IMG/VR virus record: IMGVR_UViG_2657245660_000018
Direction: 5' to 3' (one strand)
Source: a virus
Lineage: Duplodnaviria > Heunggongvirae > Uroviricota > Caudoviricetes
DNA: 9,457 bases
Numbering within the stretch: position 1 is the stretch's first letter; each line of letters starts with the position of its first letter. The position numbers and the translations under genes are program-made. Below, piece after piece: positions 6,730 to 7,013 of this stretch. The notes below the pieces were generated by a model, which saw only the letters and a list, made by a program, of their open reading frames with translations, did no database searches and was not told the DNA's origin.

Positions 6730-6826
6730 AGGTGTCAGCCACTATACTAGTAACAGGTGTCAGCCACGTCAATAGTGTTTTTCCATTTTCTTGTGTGTAT
6801 ACTGTCAGCCACCTAATAACAAGGAA
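6730..6826. promoter_or_regulatory. divergent promoter / operator region with three direct TGTCAGCCAC repeats
   Basis: AGGTGTCAGCCAC at 6730-6742 and 6755-6767 (25 bp apart), and CTGTCAGCCACC at 6802-6813. TATACT -10-like hexamers at 6743-6748 and 6798-6803 abut the repeats. AAGGAA RBS at 6821-6826. Confidence 0.6.
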
Positions 6827-6833
6827 ATCAGAT

Positions 6834-7013
6834 ATGGCAACGAAAGCAGTTAATGGAAAATCCAAAAAACTTGAGGCACGAGTCCCCCATGCAATAGCTG
6901 ACGCCGTAGAAAATTTAAAGGAAGAAGGCGAAAGCACTGGGCAATTTATCGTTTCGGCACTTGAAGGCGAGATCAAACGCCGCCAGCGCCGCAAGGCCAA
7001 AGAGCAGGAATAG
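6834..7013 (+). CDS. small ribbon-helix-helix-like DNA-binding protein (59 aa), candidate regulator / repressor of the element
   Basis: ATG at 6834 with AAGGAA 7 nt upstream. The product MATKAVNGKSKKLEARVPHAIADAVENLKEEGESTGQFIVSALEGEIKRRQRRKAKEQE has an N-terminal strand-like KLEARVP, then two helices separated by a G-x-S-T turn, and a basic tail. This is a motif-level inference. Confidence 0.55.
   Translation: MATKAVNGKSKKLEARVPHAIADAVENLKEEGESTGQFIVSALEGEIKRRQRRKAKEQE

Follow-up and report, generated by a model that had tools for sequence, protein, structure and literature searches.

In the immI region of phage P22, the small ribbon-helix-helix (RHH) repressors Mnt and Arc act at operators within the back-to-back promoters P_ant and P_mnt, and one ribosome-binding site of the operon under their control is covered by a short antisense RNA, sar. 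Phage-inducible chromosomal islands (PICIs) of Gram-positive bacteria use repressors of another family, the Stl proteins, which are helix-turn-helix (HTH) repressors. Here we describe a 9457-bp stretch of DNA (the window; IMG/VR record IMGVR_UViG_2657245660_000018), a PICI-type satellite of ~9 kb from E. coli whose insertion site lies between clpS and cspD. All of its genes run leftward with a single exception, a plus-strand gene for a 59-aa protein, and comparison of related loci suggests that this protein is very probably an autoregulated RHH repressor that acts through three operators on the leftward operon running from an Icd-like gene to the primase gene. A first reading of the window from its letters (the original prediction) had started from the rule that islands keep a master repressor divergent from their replication genes. 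That rule holds for Gram-positive PICIs; Gram-negative PICIs, by contrast, have been described as transcribed unidirectionally, with the existence of a repressor called 'unclear' (PMC6092414). In one of them, EcCICFT073, AlpA activates the island genes, and alpA is the helper-responsive gene, its expression being raised by helper phages (PMC6092414).

Three direct copies of one repeat lie between the plus-strand gene and the leftward operon, as had been claimed: TGTCAGCCAC is found exactly at 6733-6742, 6758-6767 and 6803-6812, and the first two copies extend to a 13-mer, AGGTGTCAGCCAC, at 6730 and 6755. No further copy is present in the window, even at one mismatch, and none of 3000 windows simulated under a first-order Markov model contained any 10-mer three times within 100 bp; these repeats are genuine, and chance does not account for them. 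A second repeat, the 15-nt TAGTGTTTTTCCATT (6773 and 7087), has no counterpart at other loci and was set aside as chance or T-rich sequence. The divergent arrangement is likewise real, since the leftward open reading frame (ORF) that starts at 6634 matches the Icd-like family (NF033153) and is preceded by the ribosome-binding sequence GAGGTA.

We compared the window with 66 loci that encode relatives of the 59-aa protein, taking one genome per species (~25 genera). Most of these share a neighbourhood in which int and alpA (sometimes with Bro/Ant genes) run leftward, the small gene runs rightward, and a leftward operon ends in a primase gene. In more than 60 loci, three 11-bp sites reading GTG-N5-CAC, pseudo-palindromic and found in both orientations, recur upstream of the small gene at set offsets from its ATG. 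The middle and proximal sites (O2 and O3) stand at -77 and -32 in 54 loci, an O3 offset kept by all five members of a further E. coli test set, and the distance between them is a constant 45 bp. The distal site (O1) lies at -99 to -113, in either orientation and always with the core of its own locus, so that the O1-O2 distance varies from 22 to 35 bp. Across 50 unique upstream regions conservation falls on GTG, CAC, the TCAA of a (G/T)TCAA that trails O2, GTATACTG and CACC, while the five core bases vary. Operator-like sites elsewhere in the 434 kb of loci number 26 against ~26 expected by chance, every one of them with one mismatch and none exact. Two loci (L018 and L063, with strands QTIAARVP and QTVAARVP) carry a fourth operator copy, GTGTTGAACAC, at about -61 from the ATG, between both -35 regions.

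The sites keep fixed places with respect to a pair of divergent promoters. For P_L, which points leftward, ~60 of 65 unique loci have a -35 that reads TTGA(C/A/G)N at the corresponding position, and 63 of the 65 have a -10 of the form TAnnnT at a distance of 16-18 nt. At P_R, the rightward promoter, TATACT recurs with unchanged offset in the majority of 65 upstream regions from related loci, and the GTATACTG that spans this region ranks among the most conserved columns of the 50-region set. The original prediction had named two TATACT hexamers as -10 elements: the second (6798-6803) is indeed a conserved plus-strand -10, but the first (6743-6748) is not conserved as such and overlaps the TAGTAT of P_L, which is read on the other strand. 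The repeat count and spacing had also been taken as a sign of cooperative binding, a suggestion that the variable O1-O2 distance and the invertible O1 do not bear out; the constant O2-O3 spacing is explained by the geometry of the two promoters.

The 59-aa protein belongs to the YlcI/YnfO family by profile and, as modelled, to the RHH superfamily by fold. The NCBIfam hidden Markov model NF041551 (YlcI/YnfO, DUF3950) matches residues 9-50 with 61.9 bits against a cut-off of 30, and RefSeq names both it and its homologues YlcI/YnfO as well. An AlphaFold2 model built with 25 homologues as input (predicted local distance difference test score, pLDDT, 88.6) shows an extended segment at residues 11-18 and then two helices; the beta-strand comprises residues 11-18 (KKLEARVP) and the helices residues 19-28 and 35-58. 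This strand-helix-helix arrangement of ~45 residues is, in the model, an RHH and not an HTH fold, which agrees with the RHH-like pattern noticed earlier. In an hhalign comparison with the Arc sequence, residues 9-32 align with Arc 6-29 (E 0.001, probability 21%), and K12, E14 and R16 then fall on Arc Q9, N11 and R13, the residues with which Arc reads DNA. Pfam (E 0.1) gave no family above threshold, with weak matches to RHH_1 (E 0.009, in 1 of 25 members), CB_ParB_C and PSK_trans_fac; a sequence-profile search of the PDB found no match, Foldseek against the PDB returned nothing significant, and tblastn against 50,697 phage records produced nothing usable. The family is small (93 cluster representatives among 1.84 billion) and its members are distributed across Enterobacterales. 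A C-terminal motif, E46-IKRRQR-52, is invariant among homologues, and the ORF is conserved as protein with synonymous codon variation, indicating that the constraint acts on the protein. A search of the open-access literature, with subscription journals outside its scope, found neither a functional role for YlcI, YnfO or DUF3950 nor a description of an RHH regulator in PICIs.

Protein and sites are linked by their co-variation. The N5 core is alike at the three sites of a locus and different between loci, and it tracks the beta-strand of the protein encoded there, in ~17 beta-strand classes each with its own core. The KKLEARVP strand of the window goes with GTGTCAGCCAC, KRFDVRVP with GTGTCGGACAC, GTGTC(G/C)GACAC, QMTTVRIP with GTGAAATACAC, QQLNARFP with GTGAATCGCAC, LQVSVRLP with GTGAACACCAC and QKMSARVP with CTGGCACCCA. 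With one representative per strand variant, identity between the O2 and O3 cores of the same locus came to 83 of 115, as compared with 37.4 +/- 5.4 after permutation (maximum 62 in 100000 permutations). By protein column, association with the core was greatest at residues 14, 13 and 12 (z 13.3, 11.2 and 10.2). Two sets of relatives at ~75% identity to the window protein separate the strand from overall similarity: Xenorhabdus proteins with the same strand have an identical operator, whereas that of a Pectobacterium locus (L002) with another strand has another operator. All five loci of the E. coli test set obey the rule and contribute a new class (QSVTARIA with GTGTCTTACAC), and EcCICFT073 fits too. 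There, the YlcI/YnfO gene C_RS30120 is divergent from the Icd-like gene C_RS30125, and the sites are GTGTGGCCCAC, present twice, and CTGTCCCCCAC, which follows TATACT.

Operator class does not track the similarity of the AlpA, Icd-like, primase or integrase proteins. The loci with the nearest AlpA (L067, 65%; L037, 61%; L018, 60%) carry other operators, as does the locus with the closest Icd-like protein (73%), and the Xenorhabdus loci that share the window's operator encode an AlpA of 40-47% identity and have no detectable Icd-like gene. These data provide indirect evidence that the beta-strand residues read bases of the GTG-N5-CAC sites, and they support, on comparative grounds, the earlier suggestion that the repeats are operators of the small protein.

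In the mechanism that we propose, a dimer would place the beta-sheet formed by its two strands in the major groove of each 11-bp site, with K12, E14 and R16 pointing toward the DNA. The predicted sites fall in the 200-bp region separating the RHH gene from the icd-like/DUF4222/primase operon, which P_L is expected to drive from the Icd-like gene to the primase. All three would exclude RNA polymerase by their position, which argues for repression of this operon together with negative autoregulation, the latter from the placement of O3 on the P_R -10 and expected start. Occupied operators would thus keep the replication operon off and limit the repressor's own synthesis, and the integrated satellite would thereby stay quiet. 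The features are collected in the table.

Table. Features of the 9457-bp window; operators, promoters, terminator and antisense RNA are predictions.
Feature	Positions	Strand or direction	Details
59-aa RHH protein gene, YlcI/YnfO family	6834-7013 (59 aa + stop)	+	AAGGA at 6821-6825 upstream
Predicted operator O1	6732-6742	+	GTGTCAGCCAC; 2 nt past P_L -10; expected leftward start covered
Predicted operator O2	6757-6767	+	GTGTCAGCCAC; promoter-proximal part of P_L spacer, abuts -35
Predicted operator O3	6802-6812	+	CTGTCAGCCAC; overlaps last 2 nt of P_R -10 and covers expected start site
P_L, leftward promoter	6744-6772	-	-35 TTGACG (6772-6767), 17-nt spacer, -10 TAGTAT (6749-6744); consensus scan
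P_R -10 for RHH gene	6798-6803	+	TATACT; upstream stretch T-rich
Intrinsic terminator of monocistronic RHH transcript	7102-7121	+	7-bp stem, 6 GC pairs, then TTTGTTTTAT; annotated extent 7102-7131
Candidate cis-antisense RNA, ~80 nt	6632-6712	+	hairpin 1 6643-6659; terminator-like hairpin 2 6670-6704; T-rich tail; ends just before O1
Possible extended -10 for antisense RNA	6618-6626	+	TGgTATGAT; inside first Icd-like codons
Icd-like gene, first of leftward operon	6431-6634	-	67 aa; NF033153, 68.7 bits; phrog_6196
Three small ORFs	between Icd-like and DUF4222 genes in gene list	leftward	
DUF4222 gene	5521-5820	-	leftward operon
Primase gene	3770-5524	-	Pfam D5_N + DUF5906; end of leftward operon
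Small terminase gene	2065-2694	leftward	
Truncated HK97-type capsid homologue	979-1902	leftward	
alpA	7148-7372	leftward (-)	
257-aa protein	7464-8237	leftward	uncharacterised
Integrase gene	8234-9457	leftward	

Release from repression would probably, at a lower level of confidence, come by read-through. Helper-induced AlpA would set off leftward transcription from alpA that runs antisense through the repressor gene, over the operators and into the operon, reducing repressor synthesis and bypassing P_L. The alpA gene is convergent with the RHH gene, and inspection of the sequence of the hairpin between them (7102-7121) found no U-tract on the minus strand, so alpA transcripts should continue leftward into the repressor gene. 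A minus-strand 'terminator' called within the RHH gene (6889-6872) has a weak 5-bp stem that derives from Lys-Lys codons and was treated as chance.

The leader of alpA itself carries a hairpin (7380-7407, minus strand, within an element at 7373-7407) made of CGTCCTCG, 12 intervening nt and CGAGGACG, followed by TTTTTTT that abuts the ATG at 7372. The ribosome-binding sequence lies inside the 3' arm, and the layout is kept, with compensatory stem changes, in eight loci with a related AlpA; from its sequence it looks like a terminator or a translation lock on alpA. Pseudomonas AlpA is a processive antiterminator (PMC9371919), and an antiterminator acting at such a hairpin would fit both the reported autoactivation and the read-through route. 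Upstream of the leader hairpin, a perfect palindrome, GTGATATCAC, occurs twice (7437-7446 and 7458-7467, 21 bp apart) and could be a binding site for AlpA or a helper-phage factor.

On the other side of the operators, the plus strand of 6632-6712 has the marks of a candidate cis-antisense RNA opposite the start of the leftward operon's first gene. Such an RNA would be complementary to the Icd-like 5' untranslated region, ribosome-binding site and AUG, and would probably add a post-transcriptional lock. In a 48-locus alignment (A2), 94% of cells in the two-hairpin structure are paired and 15 of 18 pairs have changed on both sides; none of 500 shuffles equalled this pairing, and slid controls gave 36-44%. 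There are 81 cells whose G.U pairs are valid solely on the plus strand, against 5 solely for the minus strand, an asymmetry that assigns the structure to a plus-strand RNA. The window sequence folds with a minimum free energy of -32.6 kcal/mol (z -4.98), and Rfam contains no family for the leader region. A weak, possible promoter for this RNA is the extended -10 listed in the table: its pattern, TGnTAnGAT, is kept in loci of the same leader type (the window, L063, L037, L003, L042 and L046) despite differing encoded residues, and a consensus promoter scan did not pick it up.

Two further observations concern the leftward operon. The Icd-like protein matches phrog_6196 (E 7e-47), whose annotation is 'transcriptional repressor', and its NCBIfam annotation as Icd-like implies another function. 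Just downstream of the primase gene, the non-coding stretch 3529-3762 holds at least 10 copies of GGTAGAGG/CCTCTACC in both orientations, which, as sequence, match the place and form expected of a PICI replication origin.

Several observations weigh against the proposed repressor. P_R has no recognisable -35, the start sites at P_L and P_R are predicted positions and not mapped ones, and the case for binding and regulation is a comparative one in which the core correlates with many protein columns beyond the beta-strand, as is expected of sequences that share descent. In EcCICFT073, moreover, overexpression of AlpA alone brings about excision and replication without a phage, and mobilisation fails in an alpA mutant (PMC6092414). 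Since that island carries the same module, an RHH repressor cannot be the sole or the helper-sensing gate; it would be at most one silencing layer, which AlpA can override. We asked whether the c1499::cat marker of EcCICFT073 disrupts the RHH gene, and this is ruled out, c1499 being the capsid homologue.

The same experiments bear on an alternative in which the RHH protein is itself the helper-sensing master repressor, equivalent to SaPI Stl, so that a helper-phage protein binds it, lifts repression and induces the island. Its gene is placed like those of Stl and Rpr, divergent from the replication operon (PMC6092414); the invariant E46-IKRRQR-52, under constraint at the protein level, could be a partner-binding surface; and the diversity of specificity classes resembles that of immunity groups. 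Induction of EcCICFT073 by AlpA without a phage and the action of helper phages through raised alpA expression (PMC6092414) nevertheless make this unlikely and leave unsupported the claim of the original prediction that the locus is the immunity or induction switch. A role mainly as activator or dual regulator of P_R and P_L, after the manner of Mnt on its own promoter or of AmrZ, appears more improbable still: the predicted operators occupy the core of each promoter (O2 in the P_L spacer, O1 at the P_L start, O3 on the P_R -10 and start), where a bound protein would occlude RNA polymerase, and none in the window is placed upstream of a -35.

The repeats might instead serve another function or protein (replication iterons, AlpA, the integrase or an excisionase, packaging), with the small ORF incidental. 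Repeats in satellites are often origin iterons, and a DNA-binding regulator, AlpA, is encoded 135 bp from the small gene. Iterons of the origin type are present elsewhere in the window with another sequence, however, and the repeats between the divergent genes sit inside promoter elements, vary in step with the RHH beta-strand, showing no such relation to the similarity of the AlpA, primase, integrase or Icd-like proteins, and accompany an ORF that is conserved as protein with synonymous variation; we give this explanation very little weight. Equally hard to credit is an RHH antitoxin or a centromere-binding partition protein like ParG or omega in place of a lifecycle regulator. The gene stands alone in its transcript, which ends at a predicted terminator of its own, and alpA converges on it from downstream; no downstream toxin gene and no match to a ParA-type family were found among the window genes, nor across the other loci.

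Our preferred account, an autoregulated RHH repressor of the icd-primase operon, can be extended to a tentative one that we hold possible and no more. In it, the RHH repressor, its three operators, the antisense RNA and a terminator-guarded alpA would make up, between them, the circuit for immunity and induction that Gram-negative PICIs have seemed to lack. AlpA would act as antiterminator, and read-through would silence the convergent repressor gene and reach the replication operon, throwing a bistable switch; the operator classes, at least 17, would be heteroimmunity groups that allow several satellites to coexist within a cell and a natural library of orthogonal RHH-operator pairs. Among 16 co-resident locus pairs none share a class, against 1.3 expected by chance (P 0.25), which is not evidence for heteroimmunity.

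For the repressor whose existence in Gram-negative PICIs was left unclear, this module is a concrete candidate, and it would give the uncharacterised YlcI/YnfO family a role. The module is present in ~9% of complete E. coli genomes and in EcCICFT073, which makes the question testable in existing strains. The natural pairs of protein and operator, with most of their differences in three residues of the beta-strand and five base pairs, supply ready data on RHH specificity and could yield small orthogonal repressors; if the tentative circuit were correct, they would expose an RHH recognition code. In the genome of CFT073 (L075, NC_004431.1 1380242-1381052), a second small gene, C_RS30800 (57 aa), follows downstream on the strand of the RHH gene. 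The RefSeq tags of the EcCICFT073 RHH gene, C_RS30800 and the Icd-like gene are high-numbered and out of series with their neighbours, from which we infer that these genes were added after the original annotation; this may be why published maps show a unidirectional island.

Among known systems, the nearest by family are YlcI (prophage DLP12) and YnfO (Qin) of E. coli K-12, both NF041551/DUF3950. YlcI has the same strand-helix-helix sequence pattern, but it is only 22% identical to the 59-aa protein, lacks the EIKRRQR tail and adjoins nohD, and no obvious GTG-N5-CAC triplet lies upstream of it. In DLP12 (L068, 7252-7834), ylcI is divergent from nohD, a terminase small-subunit homologue, across a 388-bp gap. 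This gap is where we would presume cos to lie by analogy with lambda, and the pattern of YlcI hints, on that analogy, that in lambdoid prophages the protein may bind DNA close to the packaging site.

Where short units in either orientation are concerned, the omega repressor of pSM19035 (inc18 plasmids) offers the closest precedent. Omega binds contiguous 7-bp heptads cooperatively, whereas the units described here are 11 bp long and 22-45 bp apart, and the 59-aa protein has no evident partition role. Stl and Rpr of Gram-positive PICIs share its position, divergent from the excision and replication operon, and its presumed task (PMC6092414). Stl is inactivated by helper-phage proteins (PMC6092414), in contrast to an island type in which AlpA provides the inducer route; the 59-aa protein would function in a Stl-like manner while belonging to the RHH and not the Stl family. 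The closest architecture is that of P22 immI (primary references in PMC2629481). As in P22, a small RHH repressor is encoded divergently from the operon that it would control, and the predicted operators lie within back-to-back promoters, O2 falling between -35 and -10 as the Arc operator does. The candidate antisense RNA at 6632-6712, in turn, would take the place of sar, facing the ribosome-binding site of the Icd-like gene.
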